A DNA stretch of 64,000 nucleotides from Candidatus Poseidoniales archaeon (GTDB lineage Archaea; Thermoplasmatota; Poseidoniia; Poseidoniales; Thalassarchaeaceae). Below the pieces are notes generated by a model. That model was given only the letters and a program-made list of their open reading frames with translations. It had not been told where the DNA came from and did not search any database. The position numbers were made by a program, and so were the translations under genes. Numbering within the stretch: position 1 is the first letter of the stretch; every line of letters begins with the position of its first letter. The stretch lies in the NCBI GenBank assembly GCA_028283505.1, contig JAPOFX010000005.1:1869-65868 (forward strand), in the 5' to 3' direction. Below, in pieces: positions 23,537 to 31,193 of the stretch.

Positions 23537-24418
23537 ATGAACGAAGTGCGGTTGAAACGACTGCTTTCTCTTCAGAAGATGGAGGCGACCGAGGCTGAAG
23601 TTTATCGGCGACTGGCGAAAATTCAGAGAGATCCAGTAAACAAAGCCATTCTCGAGGGAATAGCACTCGAGGAGGAGAGGCATGAATCGGTCATATCGAA
23701 AATCACCAAACAGAAGGTTAGGGCGAACTGGTTTCAGGTGATTAAACACTTAATACTCGCCAGGGTATTCGGTTTTACTTTCTCCATCATGTTGATGGAA
23801 AAAACCGAGCGGGACATATCATCCGAATACAGAAGTCTGGGACTAGTTGAAATCGCCGAAGAAGAGGAGGGGCATGAAAATGAGATGATCTCAATGCTAG
23901 ATGAGGAGAGGCTCCAATACTCCGGAAGCATAGTGCTGGGAATGTCTGATGCTTTGATTGAGTTGACTGGTGCTCTGGCAGGTCTTACTTTCGCACTCAA
24001 GGATATGGACTTAGTAGCCCTAGCGGGCTTAGTTACTGGGATTGCGGCGGCTTTCAGTATGGGCGCATCGGAATATCTATCATCTAGGGCCGAAAAAAGA
24101 GGGGGTTCGGCGATAAAAGCTGCCTTTTTTACTTGGATATCGTATCTAATTACTGTAATCCTCCTTGTCTCACCTTATCTGGTTCTTGACCCTACTAAAG
24201 AGGGACTGGCTGGCCTTGAGATGTATGAGACATCACTAATCTGCACCTTCGCTATTGGGTTGTCCATCGTGGGGGTTTTCAATTTCTACACATCAGTAGT
24301 TGAGAGGGCCTCATTCAAGTCAAGGTTCATTGAAATGGCTGGGATATTAGGTGTGGTCAGTCTAATCTCATATGGAATAGGCGTTGCATTAGGTATTGCA
24401 TTGGGCGTTGATGCTTAG
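23537..24418 (+). CDS. Ferritin/rubrerythrin-like domain + VIT1/CCC1 metal transporter
   Basis: ExxH pairs (EEERH, EEEGH), then LG.SDAL.E..G..AG and A.SMGASEYLS. Confidence 0.88.
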   Translation: MNEVRLKRLLSLQKMEATEAEVYRRLAKIQRDPVNKAILEGIALEEERHESVISKITKQKVRANWFQVIKHLILARVFGFTFSIMLMEKTERDISSEYRSLGLVEIAEEEEGHENEMISMLDEERLQYSGSIVLGMSDALIELTGALAGLTFALKDMDLVALAGLVTGIAAAFSMGASEYLSSRAEKRGGSAIKAAFFTWISYLITVILLVSPYLVLDPTKEGLAGLEMYETSLICTFAIGLSIVGVFNFYTSVVERASFKSRFIEMAGILGVVSLISYGIGVALGIALGVDA

Positions 24419-24460
24419 AATGATGGCTTAAGTTATGAGCGACCTCCCCTCTCAAGTAAC

Positions 24461-25957
24461 ATGGATGCTTACGATGAGCTTCTGGAGATATTGAAAGAAA
24501 TTGATCTAATGAGTCAGGTCAGGAGCCTTCTTGGTTGGGATCAAGAAGTCTTGATGCCTCCTAATGCTGCTAAATTGAGGGGTGAGCAATTGGCATGGAT
24601 TTCCAGAGAGACGCACAAAAGAAAGACCTCGCCAAGAATTGGCAAGTTACTCGAAGAGTTGGAGGCTAATAGTGAATTAAGTGAAGTTGAGGAAGCTAAC
24701 GTCAGGTTGGCTAGAGAGGCTTACGTCAAAGCCACAAAACTACCCACTGAGTTCGTCTCTGAGATGGCTAGGCATAACTCCAAGGCCGTCATATCCTGGA
24801 CAGAGGCTAGGGAGAAGAATGACTTCTCAATATTCAGGGATGACCTAGCCAAATCGATTGACTTCGCAAGAAAAAAGGCAGATTACTTGGGATATGAAAC
24901 TCTTCGATACGATGCTCTCTTGGATATCTATGAATCCGGATTGTCAGTTGCACGTTTGGACCCATTATTTGATGGTCTCAGAAACGAGGTGGCTCCCCTC
25001 ATAAAGTCCGTAGCCGAAAGAGGAGAAGGTCCTGACATGTCGTGGATTACGGATAATTCATGGAGTCGTGAAGGTCAGGAAAGGCTGAGTCAGAAGGTTT
25101 CAGAGGCAATTGGATTTGACTTCGATTCCGGAAGAAGAGATGCTTCCACCCATCCATTTTGTGGAGGTCCTAATCCTGATGATGTTAGATGGACGACGAG
25201 ATACAATGATAATGATCCATTCGGGTCTCTCTACGGCTCGATGCATGAAACTGGTCATGGAACCTATGAGCAGGGACGACCAAGAAATCTCGACTTCCAA
25301 CCCGCGGGATATGCTAACGGTTTAGGGATTCATGAAAGCCAAAGTAGGCTTTGGGAGAATCAGATAGGTCGCTCATATGAGTTCTGTCAATGGATACTTC
25401 CTCTGTGGAAAGAGGAGTTCCCTGAGAACACCAAGAATTTGGATGCCGAGTTACTCTGGAAGTCTGTCAATCTAATTGAGCCCAGCCTGATTCGTGTTGA
25501 TGCAGATGAAGCCACGTACAATATTCATATTATGATAAGATACGAGATTGAGAAGCTTCTGATTTCTGGAGAGCTGGAGGTGGATGATTTACCTGATAGG
25601 TGGGACGACATGTATGAGCAATACCTTGGTGTCAGAGCAGAAGACAGATCATCTGGCGTCCTACAGGACATTCATTGGTCGATGGGGGCGATCGGTTACT
25701 TCCCTACTTACACCCTGGGTAACTTGTATTCTGCTCAGCTTCTTGAGGCTGCTAGAGAGGACCTTCCGGAACATGATTCACAGATAAGCAGGGGGGAGTT
25801 TTCGCCTCTATTACATTGGATGAGAGAAAAGGTCCATCGAAGAGGGAGTATCCTGAGGCCGGCGGAGTTAATTCAAGAAGCATGTGGAGAACCCCCATCA
25901 CCCGAGGCCTTTGTTGAATACTTGAAGAGAAAGGTGGCTCGTCTCTACGGGGTTTAA
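24461..25957 (+). CDS. Carboxypeptidase M32 (Taq-type)
   Basis: LL.WDQE..MP, HPF, HETGH, HESQSRLWEN, IRVDADE, LQDIHWS.G..GYFPTY.LG. Confidence 0.96.
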   Translation: MDAYDELLEILKEIDLMSQVRSLLGWDQEVLMPPNAAKLRGEQLAWISRETHKRKTSPRIGKLLEELEANSELSEVEEANVRLAREAYVKATKLPTEFVSEMARHNSKAVISWTEAREKNDFSIFRDDLAKSIDFARKKADYLGYETLRYDALLDIYESGLSVARLDPLFDGLRNEVAPLIKSVAERGEGPDMSWITDNSWSREGQERLSQKVSEAIGFDFDSGRRDASTHPFCGGPNPDDVRWTTRYNDNDPFGSLYGSMHETGHGTYEQGRPRNLDFQPAGYANGLGIHESQSRLWENQIGRSYEFCQWILPLWKEEFPENTKNLDAELLWKSVNLIEPSLIRVDADEATYNIHIMIRYEIEKLLISGELEVDDLPDRWDDMYEQYLGVRAEDRSSGVLQDIHWSMGAIGYFPTYTLGNLYSAQLLEAAREDLPEHDSQISRGEFSPLLHWMREKVHRRGSILRPAELIQEACGEPPSPEAFVEYLKRKVARLYGV

Positions 25958-26005
25958 TCCGTCGACCAACGAAAGCACGATATCTCAAGGTCTCCCGGAA
26001 GGTGC

Positions 26006-27172
26006 ATGGTAACGATAGCAGTTGATGCGGCCTCTTCTTTCATTCGTGACCTGGGGTCTCCCTGTACTGCTATCTCTCTAAGGGATGGTTCTATTATAGC
26101 TGGGTCCAAGGAAGGCTCACTAATTTGTTGGCTAGCCTCAACTGGGAAAGAGGTTTGGAGGGTATCCGTTGAAGGGCCCATTTCAGATATTGAAACAAGT
26201 CATGACCGTGTGTTTGTAACGGCCTCGTCTTCGCTCTATGCCATCGATGACTCGGACGGTTCGATCTTTTGGAAGAGAGAGCTGGAGGGTGCTAGTGATT
26301 ACGTTCTATCCGTGGAAGGCTCGATTTGGGCGACTTCGTCGGTGTATGAGATAGAGGTCGGAGATTACACCGAGTCATCAATATGGAGATTTAATCGATC
26401 CGGCGAGTTGGTGAAGCGATGGGTTATTCCAGAGAGATGCTGGTTTATTGGCCCCTCATTCGGGAAAATAATCTTGGGGCTGGGAAGACCTAGGTGTGGA
26501 ATTCTAAGTATCGATGGTGATGATCTGGTTCATTTTGAGATTGGGGATGGAAATCCGATAGTTTGTGGGGATTACACAACACAAGACGGTGGATCGGCAA
26601 TATCCATACTTGGCCATTCCAGTGGCGCGGTATCTTGGGTGGAAGGACATACTGAAGAAGTGAAAGACCAAAATCGGATCGGTTCGCCTTGGCGGGCCCC
26701 CATTATCGAAGAGTCAAGCGCGGCCTGCTGCATTCTGGTTCCAGGCATCGGTTCCGAGTTCATTACAGCATACGAAAACGGGTTTATCAAGAGTAATTAT
26801 GGATGGAGCTATGATGCTCAATCTGCAGTGTCTGCGATGGCAGTTGGGCCCTCTGGCGATGGAGAGACTAGACGGACCTATTGGGCCTGTGCAGGTCGGA
26901 GGGTTCTGGTACTATCAAGTCCAGATACAGCAGGGGATGTTGATAATTCTGAGGCTCCCGGAGGTCAATTGATATTGGAATTGAGGCATGAATGCCGTCT
27001 TGTCGAACCTAACTCAGAAGGAGATACAATAGTCCTCGGGGATGAAAGAGGCAGAATCTACTCGATTAACGGCCAATTCCTCCGCAGAAGGATAGAGGAA
27101 GGGGGCGTAGGGATTAACAGTGACAAAAGGATATCTGTAATGAGAGAGCGATTGAGGAAGCTCCGCGAGTAA
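26006..27172 (+). CDS. PQQ-like beta-propeller repeat protein
   Basis: Repeats such as G.LICW...TGKEVW and LYAID..DG...WK. Confidence 0.7.
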   Translation: MVTIAVDAASSFIRDLGSPCTAISLRDGSIIAGSKEGSLICWLASTGKEVWRVSVEGPISDIETSHDRVFVTASSSLYAIDDSDGSIFWKRELEGASDYVLSVEGSIWATSSVYEIEVGDYTESSIWRFNRSGELVKRWVIPERCWFIGPSFGKIILGLGRPRCGILSIDGDDLVHFEIGDGNPIVCGDYTTQDGGSAISILGHSSGAVSWVEGHTEEVKDQNRIGSPWRAPIIEESSAACCILVPGIGSEFITAYENGFIKSNYGWSYDAQSAVSAMAVGPSGDGETRRTYWACAGRRVLVLSSPDTAGDVDNSEAPGGQLILELRHECRLVEPNSEGDTIVLGDERGRIYSINGQFLRRRIEEGGVGINSDKRISVMRERLRKLRE

Positions 27173-27176
27173 AAAA

Positions 27177-27220
27177 TTACAGTGGAAATTAACATTTACA
27201 GACCCTCATTTCCACTGTAA
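27177..27220. repeat. Perfect 13-bp inverted repeat resembling archaeal origin recognition boxes
   Basis: TTACAGTGGAAAT (27177-27189) and ATTTCCACTGTAA (27208-27220), 18-bp spacer. The repeat is certain; the ORB identity is inferred. Confidence 0.6.
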
Positions 27221-27233
27221 ACGTGATACTAAG

Positions 27234-27248
27234 CGAAAGGTTTATTTG
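27234..27248 (+). promoter_or_regulatory. Archaeal promoter (BRE + TATA) for candidate ncRNA
   Basis: CGAAAGG followed by TTTATTTG. A TGC initiator-like site at 27271-27273 lies at the expected distance. Confidence 0.7.
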
Positions 27249-27271
27249 CCGTCGCTTGTCCTGTTGACTCT

Positions 27272-27943
27272 GCCGCTCCGGGGGAGTGGTGTGGGCAAGC
27301 TTCGGCAAACCCGCGGGCCACAAAAACCGTATCCGCAAAGTCGGAGAGGTAGAACCGGGATCCGAAAGGTGAACGGGGAACAGTTGAATCGTCTGTGGAC
27401 GAGGAGACGGCAGTAGAACCGATGTGGAAATAGCCGGACGCAAGGAAGGGGAAAGAAGCGACGGGGGAAGCTGGGGAAAACGAAACCGAACCCTTCGGGG
27501 GGAAAACACAAACCGTACCAGAAAACCATGCTGCAGAGGTACACGAGAAAAGGGAAAGGAACCAGAGATGGAAACGATCCTAGAAATCGGGTGTGGGGAA
27601 CAAAAGTGGAGAAAACCGGACGCAAGGAAGGGGAGAGAAACTAGAGGGAAACACACCGGGAACGAGAGCAGGGAGACCTGTGGAGGACCGGTACCGATCG
27701 AGGATTAAAATGGTGACACTAGCCATGGAGAGAGACGACGAGGGCATTGAAGGAGCGATCCTTCAAGGGGGATATTACCCCAACAAGTCCAGAAAAAGAC
27801 AAAGGGACCCTAGAGGCCCCAGAGTCATCTACCCGGGAAATCCTAGGTAACTAGGAGGAACCGGACCCTGCGGAGTACGCAGGGGGGAAGCTTCCCCAAG
27901 CTGAACCCCTGCTGCTCCCACCCTTTCTTGGCCCTTTCAAACA
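27272..27943 (+). ncRNA. Candidate large structured non-coding RNA (~670 nt), family unknown
   Basis: Promoter upstream and T-tract downstream. Many tetraloop hairpins (UUCG 27301 and 27494; GAAA 27364; GAGA 27565 and 27673; GCGA 27755; GUAA 27847). 5'/3' complementarity. Only 18 T in 240 nt (27421-27660). No credible ORF. Confidence 0.7.
27424..27639 (+). repeat. 34-nt direct repeat, two copies 182 nt apart
   Basis: GTGGAAATAGCCGGACGCAAGGAAGGGGAAAGAA (27424-27457) vs GTGGAGAAAACCGGACGCAAGGAAGGGGAGAGAA (27606-27639), 30/34 identical. Confidence 0.85.
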
Positions 27944-27953
27944 TTTTTTTCTT
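27921..27953 (+). terminator. Pyrimidine/oligo-T terminator-like tract
   Basis: CCCTTTCTTGGCCCTTTCAAACATTTTTTTCTT directly after the purine-rich region. Archaeal terminators are U-tracts. Confidence 0.6.
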
Positions 27954-27962
27954 ACAAGGGTT

Positions 27963-29561
27963 CTACCTAGTACCTGTCATCAGTTCGGGTCTAACCCATT
28001 CATCGAATTGATCTTCCGTTAGTGCCCCTAATTCCAATGCACTCTCTCTAAGAGTTAGGTTGTTTTTGTGGGCATTTTTTGCAATCTTCGCTGCATTGTC
28101 ATACCCAATATGAGGGTTCAAGGCTGTCACTAACATCAACGAGTTCTCCAAATGTTCAGCGATCCTAACCTCATTGGCCCTCAGGCCCTTGATGCAGTTA
28201 TCAGTGAATGATCTGCAGCCATCAGAAATTATCCTGATTGAGTGGAGCAGATTGTAAATCATCATTGGCTTGAAAACGTTTAGCTCGAAATTGCCCTGAC
28301 TCCCTCCGATAGAGATAGCCATGTGGTTTCCCATCACCTGACAACATATCATCGTCAAAGCTTCTGACTGTGTGGGATTGACCTTTCCAGGCATTATGCT
28401 AGATCCCGGCTCATTGGCTGGAAGGGACAATTCTCCTATCCCGCATCTGGGCCCCGAGCCCAGCCACCTAACATCATTGGCTATTTTCATCAAGGAGGCC
28501 GCAAGAGTATTCAGAGCGCCTGAAGCTGATACAACTGCATCGTGGGCCGCAATCTGAGAGAATTTGTTGTGAGCACTAGTGAATGGTAACCCGGTTTTTG
28601 CGGCGATTTTTGATGCGACCAAATCTGGGAAATCGGGATGAGTGTTCAGACCGGTACCTACTGCTGTTCCACCAAGAGCTAATTCGTACAGATCGATGAG
28701 GGAGAACTCAATCCTCCTAATATCTGCATCTAGCATTGAAACATATCCAGAGAATTCCTGGCCGAGGGTAAGAGGTACAGCATCCATGAGATGGGTCCTC
28801 CCGATTTTGACGATGGAGTCAAACTCCTTTGATTTGAACGAAAGGGCTTCCCTTAGATAGTGTAGCGAAGGTAAAAGTACGTTTGTGATCTGTTCGACTG
28901 ACGATATATGCATGGCTGTTGGAAAGGTGTCGTTACTGGACTGTGCCCTATTGACATGGTCATTAGGGTGCACTGGCGTCTTGCTCCCGAGCCTCCCTCC
29001 AGCAAGTTCGATCGCTCTATTGGCTATGACCTCGTTAGCATTCATGTTTGTCTGGGTACCGGAACCGGTTTGCCACACACTAAGAGGAAAGTGTTCGTCT
29101 AGACTTCCTGAAATGACCTCCTTGCACGAAGATACAATCAGAGATTCTACGTCTTTATCTAATTCCCCGAGTTCAGAATTGGATTCAGCTGCCGACATCT
29201 TTAGGATTCCAAAGGCTCTGATTATTGATCTTGGCATTGTTTCCTCACCAATATCGAAATTTTCCAGAGATCTGGCAGTCTGAGCACCATAATATCTGTC
29301 GGCAGGGACTTCTATCTCTCCCATGGTATCAACTTCTACCCTTAACTCAGATGGATTTGCCCTTGCAGACCTCGGTTCTGCGATAGGTTCATTGGCATCA
29401 CTCAGCATATTTCGGGATAGTCCGTCCTCGATCATCTTGGCAATTGTTGCCGACCTGCCACTAGATTTTCCTTTCCCTACCCTTCGATCTAACTTTCTAG
29501 CGGTTTCCTCGGGTATACTGATGCTTATGATTCTTCGATCTCCAGCGCGGTGCTTTGCCAT
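27963..29561 (-). CDS. fumC: Class II fumarate hydratase with N-terminal ribbon-helix-helix-like domain
   Basis: From about residue 74: [61 protein letters not shown]. Residues 9-50 read [15 protein letters not shown]...[11 protein letters not shown]. Confidence 0.95.
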
Positions 29562-29571
29562 GTAGTTCCGA

Positions 29572-29600
29572 TTTATTAATTATTAATAAAATTAATTATT
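29572..29600. promoter_or_regulatory. AT-rich palindrome over the fumC promoter region (candidate operator)
   Basis: TTTATTAAT-T-ATTAATAAA (29572-29590), with ATTAATTATT repeated at 29575 and 29591. Lies 11-39 bp upstream of the ATG. Confidence 0.55.
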
Positions 29601-29623
29601 GGCTCGCCATACGACGATTATTA

Positions 29624-30109
29624 TTACAATCTGGTCACACTTATGATTTTCTGAGGATCGTATGGCCTATCTCCGGGCTTGGTATCACAGCCCTCAATCT
29701 TGTATACGTTCTCCATTCCCTCAATAACCTCTCCAAAAATTGCATGATTCCCATCTAACCATGGGGTTGGCACTGTTGTGAGGAAAAACTGTGATCCCCC
29801 TGTATTTGGGCCTGCATTCGCCATTGAGAATAATCCTGGCCTATCATGCCTCTTTGCCAGAGCCGATGGCTCACAGTCAATCTTCCACCCTGGTCCCCCT
29901 GTTCCTGCTCTTCCATCAAATGGATCTTTGGATCTGGGGCATCCTCCTTGAATCATGAAATTCTTGATTACACGATGGAAGTGCAATCCATCATAGAAAC
30001 CATCGTCCACTAATTTCAGGAAGTTGCCTGTAGTTTCCGGGCAGTCCTCAGTGTACAGTGCAATATCAATATCTCCAGCGCTCGTCATCATCCTAACTGT
30101 GGTTGGCAT
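29624..30109 (-). CDS. Cyclophilin-type peptidyl-prolyl isomerase
   Basis: P.T..NF, FY.GL.FHRVI..FMIQGG, SMANAGPNT.GSQFF, WLDG.H.IFG.V. Confidence 0.96.
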   Translation of the reverse strand: MPTTVRMMTSAGDIDIALYTEDCPETTGNFLKLVDDGFYDGLHFHRVIKNFMIQGGCPRSKDPFDGRAGTGGPGWKIDCEPSALAKRHDRPGLFSMANAGPNTGGSQFFLTTVPTPWLDGNHAIFGEVIEGMENVYKIEGCDTKPGDRPYDPQKIISVTRL

Positions 30110-30206
30110 GTATGTGCGTGATGCACACAGTCCAATAGTGTAACTACTGTAAGTAGTAAGAATTCATACTTTGAAAATGCAGAAATTTGACTGAAGTAAT
30201 CGAGAT

Positions 30207-30605
30207 TCAGGCCACCATTGATCCTGGAAGTACGCCTTCTGGAAGATCTAACAGCCTTACAGAACCGTCGGGATCAAGTGCCCCTAAAACTAGGAATTGG
30301 GATACAAAACCTGTCGGTAAAGTCTTGTCACCTAAGTTGACAGCTCCTACTACCATTCTCCCTATCAAATCATGACGTGGGTAGTTCGTAATCTGGGCTG
30401 AGCTCCATAGCTTCCCGATTATCGGGCCAAAATCAACCTGGATTTTGTATGATGGCTTATTCATCTCAGGGAATCTCTGGACGTCGACAATAACTCCGGC
30501 CCTCAAATCTAGATCGAAGTACGCAGATGCCCCTACGTATTCCTTTCTGGGCAGTTTTGTTGGATCGTATGGTTTTCCTTGCGAATCGATGATGTGTTTG
30601 TCCAA
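30207..30605 (-). CDS. csaA: tRNA-binding / CsaA-like protein
   Basis: LDLRAG.I, YK..VDFG, SSAQIT.Y, VN, F.S..LVLG. TTG start. Confidence 0.85.
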   Translation of the reverse strand: MDKHIIDSQGKPYDPTKLPRKEYVGASAYFDLDLRAGVIVDVQRFPEMNKPSYKIQVDFGPIIGKLWSSAQITNYPRHDLIGRMVVGAVNLGDKTLPTGFVSQFLVLGALDPDGSVRLLDLPEGVLPGSMVA

Positions 30606-31193
30606 TCAATCACCCGTGACATCCGACCTTAGAATTAGAGGAATCAGTTTAATACCGGCTGATTTGAATGCTTCCATCCCTCCCTCTTCCCTATCAAGAA
30701 TTGTCACGCAAGCTACTATTTCGCAACCCATTGATTTCATCATTGATGCTGCTTTCAGCGCGGACCCGCCTGTTGTAGTAACGTCTTCCAACAGAATCAC
30801 TCTGTCTCCTGATCTAATCGTAGAACCCTCAATGCCAGGTGGGTTTCCGGTTTTCCTACCTCCTCTTCCCTTTGGCTCTTTCCTTACCATGAAACCCCTT
30901 ATTTTCGATCCTTTTCCAGCCTTTGAAATCGCTATTGCGGTCAAAGGGACTGCCCCGAGCTCAAGTCCTCCCACGGCATCGACTCCACCCAAGGAGTCAA
31001 TACAATCATGAATCAATACTCCAATTAAATGCGCACAGTGAGGGTTCATCATTACTGGTTTCATATCGAAAAAATGCGGGCTCTTTCTACCGCTAGCTAG
31101 TGTAAATTGATCATCCGAGGAATGGAGATATGCTAATTCTCTTACTCTCTCAATTAGCTGGACCTTTGCTTTTTGTGGTGAAATTTGCTGCAT
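30606..31193 (-). CDS. pyrE: Orotate phosphoribosyltransferase
   Basis: FTLASG.KS..FFD.K, GG.ELGAVP, VRKE.K, LEDVTTTGGS, DREEG. Confidence 0.93.
   Translation of the reverse strand: MQQISPQKAKVQLIERVRELAYLHSSDDQFTLASGRKSPHFFDMKPVMMNPHCAHLIGVLIHDCIDSLGGVDAVGGLELGAVPLTAIAISKAGKGSKIRGFMVRKEPKGRGGRKTGNPPGIEGSTIRSGDRVILLEDVTTTGGSALKAASMMKSMGCEIVACVTILDREEGGMEAFKSAGIKLIPLILRSDVTGD

Follow-up and report, generated by a model that had tools for sequence, protein, structure and literature searches.

The large non-coding RNAs OLE, GOLLD and ROOL are highly expressed, and their function was unknown when they were found. They exceed 500 nucleotides (nt), derive from stand-alone genes and fold into dozens of covarying helices with many tetraloops; to our knowledge, large RNAs of this structured kind with no assigned function are, to date, bacterial. 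Marine Group II (MGII) archaea are among the most numerous archaea of the surface ocean, and none has been cultured. Here we describe a large structured RNA from an MGII genome, encoded at positions 27272-27923 on the forward (+) strand of a 64,000-nt stretch of the Candidatus Poseidoniales assembly GCA_028283505.1 (contig JAPOFX010000005.1; hereafter, the window). It is a stand-alone non-coding RNA (ncRNA) gene of 652 nt with approximately 49 helical segments, and it falls among the large ornate ncRNAs by its length, its own promoter and its 158 predicted base pairs in 49 segments, 105 of which change on both sides among homologues. We are nearly certain that this gene, with a B recognition element (BRE) and TATA box of its own, specifies a stable, trans-acting RNA of ca. 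650 nt that is specific to MGII and belongs neither to the signal recognition particle (SRP) RNA, nor to RNase P RNA, nor to any other Rfam family. It differs from OLE, GOLLD and ROOL, which are bacterial or phage RNAs, in being archaeal, in lacking any Rfam match at E ≤ 10, in its extreme purine richness and in carrying a G·A-rich module that varies in copy number; no oapA-like associated gene was seen. Multimers of ROOL and GOLLD are the subject of a cryo-electron microscopy paper (10.1101/2024.12.08.627333).

A possible earlier sighting in archaea is Tan1 (Thalassoarchaea ncRNA 1). As reported by Hou et al. 2016 (Sci Rep; PMC5069720), Tan1 is a 229-nt RNA represented by six sequences, an abundant Marine Group II b ncRNA of marine metatranscriptomes for which Rfam holds no family; it is described as having a 'complex secondary structure', and its homologues, at 75-79% identity, occur only in Thalassoarchaea. 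Compared by description, the two are alike in being Marine Group II b RNAs of complex fold outside Rfam, and cross-genus BLAST matches to the 5' ~290 nt of our RNA lie at 72-75% identity; they differ in length (229 against ca. 652 nt) and in that domains, modules and distribution are mapped here. The chance that Tan1 is part of this RNA, and so a partial earlier sighting of it, is roughly even. A first-pass annotation, made from the sequence of the window, had called the RNA undescribed, which holds in so far as it has no Rfam 15 family but is uncertain in view of Tan1 as it is described. No printed description besides Tan1 was found in a literature search whose reach ended short of subscription journals and supplements. 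What seems new even if Tan1 proves to be a part is the full 650-nt molecule, with its covarying fold, its spread and its mobile G·A-rich module.

The evidence for a folded RNA comes from 87 non-redundant full-length homologues, 472-843 nt long and 61-94% identical to the window, from which a consensus was derived with RNAalifold; its 158 pairs were counted on an independent MAFFT alignment (A3) of 86 sequences. A two-anchor test was passed by 67 of 80 listed loci, with an actinobacterial locus (L153) dropped as a chance fuzzy match; N-containing sequences (including G016, G154 and G013) were left out, and removal of exact or contained duplicates reduced the set from 122 to 116 to 87. One locus cut at a contig end (L102) was left out of alignments A2 and A3, and L072, L074 and L081 could not be delimited. 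The structured RNA that had been proposed by eye is borne out by covariation: 105 of the 158 pairs change on both sides, against 83.2±2.8 in shuffled controls (equalled in 0/500) and 38-52 with slid partners, and alignment cells with a both-side change number 1551, against 481.5±25.5 and 238-330, respectively. This is an approximately fivefold excess over the slid controls, which retain the relatedness of the sequences. Standard pairs occupy 90.1% of 12,702 cells (slid, 37-43.5%; shuffled, 78.8±0.2%), with a covariation score of 0.316 vs 0.148. In the 5' domain, drawn by hand with 39 pairs, 91.2% of cells are paired (slid, 37-48%) and 24 pairs change on both sides, in 304 cells as opposed to 82.5±10.9 in shuffles (0/500). 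Within predicted pairs, G·U and U·G fill 1135 cells and A·C and C·A only 266, a ratio of about 4:1; therefore the RNA lies on the + strand, as the first annotation had argued from G-U pairs. The + strand folds at -232.2 kcal/mol (z-score -3.18, 20 shuffles) and the - strand at -216.5 kcal/mol (z-score -1.87).

The proposal that the locus is non-coding also stood. Among 16 sequences of the same genus, the length of 26 of the 28 distinct gap runs is not divisible by three, and variable columns are distributed over the three codon phases as 73/218, 62/217 and 68/217, showing no third-position pattern. Open frames are nevertheless present in all six frames, including ones of 94 amino acids on the + strand and 155 on the - strand, because stop codons are scarce in such a base composition: the RNA is 32.8% A, 22.4% C, 33.7% G and 11.0% U, compared with 26.8% T for the window as a whole. 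The striking count of 18 T in the 240 nt at 27421-27660 was exact (A95 C42 G85 T18). Across the 64 kilobases, the eight 240-nt segments poorest in T or A all fall within 27321-27740, and in the range scanned for skew (24000-31000) an AT skew of +0.5 to +0.66 was seen at the RNA locus only. U content is 7-14% and purine content 63-74% in most genera.

The gene is preceded by a conserved promoter. The BRE-like and TATA-like elements at 27234-27248, the TGC at 27271-27273 and the run of seven T at 27944-27950 that had been picked out on first reading are all present in the sequence. The promoter core GAAA..TTTA is retained in nearly every aligned genus, and the distance from TTTA to the GCCGC that begins the RNA is constant at 31 nt, with different letters in the spacer (g1 vs g11). 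Conservation begins at 27272. RNA libraries also contain the transcript, as had been predicted. Among the public runs listed, 20 hold the stretch (19 on record as RNA; 13 studies); eight of the 20 hold at least half of the sampled words, and one run amounts to only 4 million letters. Contigs lie on 27268-27923 in all four runs examined, from four studies. The 5'-most contigs start at 27268 (run X5) and 27272 (X7), and the 3'-most ends at 27923 (X1); the X7 contig carries eight foreign letters directly before 27272 that resemble the end of a template-switch oligo, which would mark the 5' end of an RNA. Depth in the flanks of these runs was nil at 26000-27209 and next to nil at 27936-29600, figures that we do not use as evidence, since missing contig cover carries no weight. 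The first-pass annotation had expected a transcript of 27272-27945. Its start agrees with both the tagged contig end and the constant 31-nt spacing across genera, but its end does not hold: conservation ceases directly after GCUCCCACC at 27921, and RNA contigs stop at ca. 27921-27923. The mature 3' end is probably near 27923 and not at the T run, which lies 23 nt beyond the conserved end and probably terminates a primary transcript slightly longer than the mature RNA; no RNA contig covers the trailer (27924-27950) in the four runs. The features of the locus are as follows.

27177..27220, no strand: perfect 13-base-pair inverted repeat, arms 27177-27189/27208-27220, 18-nt spacer (arms 100% complementary)
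27234..27248, + strand: promoter, BRE-like CGAAAGG then TATA-like TTTATTTG (sequence and conservation across genera)
27272..27415, + strand: 5' domain (covariation, 39 pairs)
27272-79/27283-90, + strand: P1, terminal hairpin
27291-95/27310-14 and 27298-300/27305-07, + strand: P2, with UUCG loop
27313-21, + strand: invariant GCGGGCCAC
27326-28/27348-50 and 27332-37/27342-47, + strand: P3
27355-58/27373-76 and 27362-63/27368-69, + strand: P4, with GAAA loop
27383-85/27406-08 and 27389-93/27398-402, + strand: P5
27411..27533, + strand: domain with module copy 1 and CCC-UUCG-GGG, closed by 27411-15/27529-33 (helices 12 and 15-22)
27419..27464, + strand: module copy 1 (core 27434-27449)
27538..27695, + strand: central domain, closed by 27538-42/27691-95 (covariation, helices 23, 26, 31 and 33)
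27606..27642, + strand: module copy 2 (core 27616-27631)
27698..27796, + strand: variable domain, hairpins 27710-26 and 27750-65 (GCGA loop) (helices 34-39)
27797..27923, + strand: 3' domain (covariation, helices 40-49; its covariance model R2 finds 53/74 family genomes)
27924..27950, + strand: 3' trailer with UGGCCC at 27930-35 and seven T at 27944-50 (sequence, alignment)

Both ends of the RNA are held in helices, with G27272 inside P1 and the last conserved bases paired with the invariant GACCCUGCGGAGU. Between them lie five domains in which long-range helices close successive units (27411-15/27529-33, 27538-42/27691-95 and 27591-95/27652-56) and GNRA or UUCG loops cap the tips. In the first of these helices (helix 12), five of six pairs change on both sides; the third encloses module copy 2 within the central domain, where CAGG-GAGA-CCUG corresponds to 27668-72/27677-81. 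The variable domain is a site at which modules are inserted in other genera. The 3' domain contains the invariant UCUACCC, a helix (27833-36/27861-64) with the GUAA hairpin, and the pairing of GACCCUGCGGAGU with GCUCCCA (27869-76/27914-20), within which lies a stem with strong covariation (27879-85/27906-12) whose cap is a conserved C-rich loop (27892-99). Six helices drawn by eye in the first annotation show compensatory change among the 86 homologues, namely the UUCG-looped inner portion of the 27286-27321 hairpin, CCC-UUCG-GGG, CAGG-GAGA-CCUG, UUGAAGGA-GCGA-UCCUUCAA, UCCUAG-GUAA-CUAGGA and the long-range GGUGUG/CACACC. Two others must be redrawn: in place of CCCUGCG-GAGUA-CGCAGGG (27866), 27879-85 covaries with 27906-12, and in place of CAGUU/AGCUG, 27383-85 covaries with 27406-08. 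The putative CCA-GAGA-UGG hairpin is lineage-specific. The RNAalifold pairings 27315-17/27866-68 and 27318-19/27377-78 never vary and speak neither for nor against themselves. Many long-range helices offered by a finder that scored the fraction paired plus extra pair types proved false, G-C/G-U variation having been counted as change, and a pseudoknot between the C-rich loop and GGGG runs was rejected when, by eye, no compensating change was seen in g13 or other variants. We also observed that P1 (27272-27290) and the 3' terminal helix (27869-27920) share nearly the same pairing, GCUCC with GGAGU. These strands could in principle swap within or between molecules; C-G to U-A changes in P1 occur in 13 sequences without a mirror change in the 3' helix.

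The RNA carries a purine-rich module. It was recognized within a 54-nt direct repeat of 78% identity (27416-27469 and 27598-27651) and is a self-contained hairpin. Its outer stem of two to three base pairs is followed by an 8x8 loop of purines only, then by CC/GG and a 3x3 GGA/GAA loop, and the hairpin ends in a C-G pair with a GNRA loop (GCAA in copy 1). In the natural register of the arms, positions 1-3 and 6-8 are G·A, position 4 is A·A, position 5 is G·G and positions 9-10 form Watson-Crick pairs. A strict search pattern matched 126 times, in 66 of the 87 RNAs; with up to one mismatch, copies per RNA are 0 in 18, 1 in 11, 2 in 47, 3 in 5, 4 in 2, 5 in 3 and 6 in 1. The instances occupy 12 alignment positions, grouped into at least eight sites, among them the P4 tip and the tips of two hairpins, one at 27494 (UUCG) and one at 27714, and in some genomes a module stands in place of the P4 tip or the UUCG-hairpin tip. 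In the source genome (G000; 1.30 megabases, 23 contigs, 89% complete), the exact 16-nt core occurs in only two places, both within the RNA; elsewhere, 10 matches with two mismatches compare with 16 for a reversed control, which is chance level. Relatives without modules also exist: those of g2 (512 nt, 15% U) keep both end domains and have UUCG hairpins instead of modules, and those of g20 (589 nt, 17% U) keep the end domains with 13 UUCG- or CUCG-type loops. U depletion is strongest in small-genome genera (7-14%) and milder, at 15-19% U, in relatives without purine modules; depletion of U and purine richness track the modules and are a feature of lineage, not of the family core. A kink-turn reading of the module was set aside, the inner loop being a symmetric 3x3 and the kink-turn consensus, as we know it, asymmetric.

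Some irregular forms were seen in the module-bearing part of the RNA. In G012 (L023:1539-2010) and L097, the RNA is ~180 nt shorter and lacks everything between the two modules, which reflects either recombination between the repeats or assembly collapse. In L106, ~100 nt of unrelated, pyrimidine-containing sequence replace part of the first module domain (A3 columns ~300-400). Split BLAST matches were discounted as signs of copy-number change, since an apparent insertion in G013 is a scaffold gap of 300 N, located where G012 and L097 are shortened, and the match in G005 is split over two contigs at the repeat.

The element, single-copy in the source genome, was found by BLAST in 19/21 other genomes of the genus (82-95% identity) and in 124/200 other genomes of the same family. 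By genus, it is present in g1 (19/21), g2 (2/2), g4 (16/18), g10 (2/24), g11 (23/23), g13 (11/13), g15 (23/23), g17 (18/21) and g18 (10/12), and BLAST did not find it in g3 (0/5), g12 (0/21), g14 (0/2) or g16 (0/15). A covariance model of the 5' domain (R1) matched 60/74 genomes of its own family f1, including g10 (7/7) and g12 (2/6), and 2/74 of sister family f3, both of genus g20; f2 gave 0/2, and two further families of the class gave 0/45 (f4, 0/43; f5, 0/2). The model of the 3' domain (R2) matched 53/74 in f1, 0/74 in f3 and 0/2 in f2. The g20 match is real. It sits directly behind the g20 homologue of the beta-propeller gene that is upstream of the RNA in the window. An exact scan for the 3' motif over 185,579 species genomes gave at least 119 stretches; among the 80 matches listed, nearly every title names Poseidoniales, Thalassarchaeaceae, Thalassarchaeum or Marine Group II, and we take a handful of unrelated bacterial and archaeal matches as chance. 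Viral contigs gave no match to this motif. Judged by the titles of named records, the family would be one of Marine Group II b, and the RNA is present in at least ten genera of the family and one genus of the sister family. Conservation in most sampled Marine Group II b genera and occurrence in RNA runs of 13 studies make it likely that the RNA serves a basic, as yet unnamed, cellular function. As a separate observation, G090 has two copies of the 5' domain (C42:2942-3088, 121.9 bits; C34:72766-72912, 121.7 bits), which may be a genuine duplication or a sign that the bin mixes strains.

What that function might be can be approached through the shape of the molecule. We favor, with a probability of about 0.4, a stable multivalent scaffold or sponge that would bind one kind of partner in many copies. 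A compact core would be formed by the conserved 5' and 3' domains, and the tips of peripheral helices would present a purine-rich hairpin that can be reused, with its GNRA loop on a largely G·A-mismatch stem. The purine runs of this module would be unable to pair within so U-poor an RNA and would remain available; copied by evolution to at least eight tip positions, at 0-6 per RNA, the module would create a multivalent surface. In an abundant particle of RNA and protein, the RNA may then serve as scaffold or sponge, and its partner would most likely be a protein. We arrive at this reading because the molecule combines sealed ends, a tetraloop-rich core, variable tip modules and unpaired purine runs. 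It resembles the sponges CsrB and RsmZ, in which a variable number of repeated GGA hairpin units is likewise carried by one abundant RNA; those RNAs, however, are shorter and have little conserved core, and they carry GGA in hairpin loops, not in internal loops as here. CsrA (PF02599) was not found in the source genome at its 89% completeness. A sponge for Shine-Dalgarno pairing was considered and rejected, as part of g15 has GGAGAA, and g13 has GGAGUG, in place of the GGAGGA at 27682-87.

Several considerations weigh against a scaffold or sponge. It is a proposal in which partner, binding, multimerisation and stability are all extrapolated from sequence. Eighteen of the 87 RNAs are without the strict module, and because g2 and g20 keep the end domains without modules, the modules are not the core function of the family. 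Module counts come from our own regular expression, the G·A register is descriptive, and the copies are homologous and not independent. The covariation figures are somewhat inflated, since the controls take no account of phylogeny and the sequences counted are also those that yielded the structure. The RNA contigs show neither the strand, nor the ends, nor the level of the RNA. Finally, the invariant stretches called unpaired (GCGGGCCAC, UCUACCC, GACCCUGCGGAGU and GCUCCCACC) would suit a catalytic or ligand-binding core equally well.

The alternative that survives best, though we consider it unlikely, is a particle made of RNA only, similar to ROOL and GOLLD, in which the GNRA loops of modules would dock in purine-rich internal loops or helices of neighboring molecules and so build dimers, cages or fibres. 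The many GNRA and UUCG tetraloops, the symmetric purine loops and the position of modules at helix tips in variable number speak for such an assembly, and the GCUCC/GGAGU pairing common to both ends makes an exchange of strands between molecules conceivable; the RNA is also found even in very small RNA runs. However, no covariation between loop and receptor was found, no known 11-nt receptor motif was noticed, and relatives without modules would have to use another interface.

A large ribozyme, or an RNA that binds a ligand or metal, is improbable in our estimation. Its active site would lie in the invariant junctions, with the modules as peripheral stabilizers. Strict invariance of GCGGGCCAC, UCUACCC, GACCCUGCGGAGU and GCUCCCA across genera of ~61-70% identity speaks for such a site, both end domains are retained in the module-less g2 and g20 forms, and a variable periphery around a fixed core is familiar from group I introns and RNase P RNAs. 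Against this, there is no candidate substrate, no signature of self-cleavage and no match to a ribozyme in Rfam; contigs span each domain, and recurrent internal breaks fall only at the repeated modules.

The neighborhood raises the very slim prospect of a cis-acting element, such as a long structured 3' untranslated region of the gene upstream. On the + strand, a gene for an M32 carboxypeptidase and then one for a PQQ-like beta-propeller protein precede the RNA, and a convergent gene for a class II fumarase follows it. The RNA and the propeller gene share a strand, other genera have open reading frames (ORFs) of corresponding size and strand on either side of the RNA, by which criteria alone the order M32 peptidase-propeller-RNA-convergent fumarase appears to be kept in several of them, and in g20 the RNA is again behind a propeller gene. 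Yet a conserved BRE and TATA box stand between gene and RNA at a constant 31 nt from the first conserved base, and the 5'-most contig positions are 27268 and 27272. Moreover, the propeller genes of three genomes (G045, G023 and G026) are followed by no RNA, with only 34-68 nt behind them; the propeller protein therefore does not depend on the RNA. The claim of the first-pass annotation that this is the only large non-coding gap may hold: the gap of 790 nt (27173-27962) is one of 13 stretches without ORFs of at least 200 amino acids, and the other 12 probably hold smaller genes.

Known RNAs were sought directly. At gathering thresholds, cmscan with the 4227 families of Rfam 15 gave no match in the whole window, in agreement with the expectation of novelty, and the region 27100-28050 gave none on either strand at E ≤ 10; ARAGORN found no tRNA. 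SRP RNA (RF01857) and RNase P RNA (RF00373) resemble our RNA in being abundant, stable, structured archaeal RNAs with paired ends, and SRP helix 8 is a GNRA-capped stem with purine-rich symmetric loops. Both are ~300 nt, however, lie elsewhere and produce no score here at E ≤ 10, such that the reported lack of SRP and RNase P signatures is upheld. RNase P RNA was located elsewhere in the source genome (G000:C2:30254-30545, 231 bits). SRP RNA was not found in that 89%-complete genome and is probably in the 11% left unassembled; within the genus, 16/21 genomes have a match (full-length ones, 111-132 bits), and among the comparable listed matches it is on contigs other than that of the element (e.g., G002, C20 vs C16). 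Because same-genus genomes that hold the element have SRP RNA on other contigs, the element is not SRP RNA. A coding gene whose low-complexity product would be rich in Glu, Lys, Gly and Arg, or else a known RNA in diverged form (SRP, RNase P or an intron), for which the open frames of 94 (+) and 155 (-) amino acids and the missing SRP RNA might be cited, can hardly be entertained against 26/28 frame-breaking gap runs, no third-position pattern, compensatory pair changes throughout, zero Rfam matches at E ≤ 10, and SRP and RNase P RNAs that lie elsewhere. The probability that remains belongs to something else.

An archaeal class would widen what has been a bacterial story of large RNAs. It is possible, although we would not expect it, that archaea have here a first large ornate RNA class of their own, that it is among the most abundant MGII transcripts of the ocean, and that the rods on its conserved core, variable in copy number and composed nearly throughout of G·A purine-purine pairs, are a new structural module that builds a multivalent super-structure, of RNA only or of RNA and protein, with a cellular role new for any RNA. 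For structural biology, the module-less forms and the forms with one to six modules make up a natural series, and with the alignment and the covariance models R1 and R2 the family could be searched for. Public gene callers are prone to put spurious ORFs here, as all six frames are long, and metatranscriptome 'mRNA' counts of these archaea could be skewed by the RNA.

Two features of the flanks deserve mention. The inverted repeat at 27177-27220 sits between the stop codon of the propeller gene and the BRE of the RNA, ending 14 nt before the latter, and its sequence is conserved in 17/17 aligned genomes, another genus included. It is either the 3' hairpin of the propeller gene or a regulator site of the RNA promoter; uncompensated arm changes in G019, G003, G015 and G024 would agree with a palindrome for protein binding no less well than with an RNA hairpin. 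On the 3' side, a GGCCC/UGGCCC motif recurs 10-30 nt past the conserved end and is the best complement in approximately 40 of 87 tails. Pairing of UGGCCC (27930-35) with the invariant GGGCCA (27315-20) was unsupported, doing no better than shuffled tails: in 50-nt tails, the longest complement averages 5.29 vs 5.08 base pairs and reaches at least 5 base pairs in 89% vs 80%.

The base composition of this RNA may bear on published transcript counts as well. The study that described Tan1 attributes 93% of the RNA-Seq reads from Euryarchaeota to 13 'intrinsically disordered protein' mRNAs (PMC5069720). Purine-rich RNAs such as this one translate into Glu/Lys/Gly/Arg-rich frames, and we offer, purely as an idea, that some of those 'mRNAs' might be non-coding.

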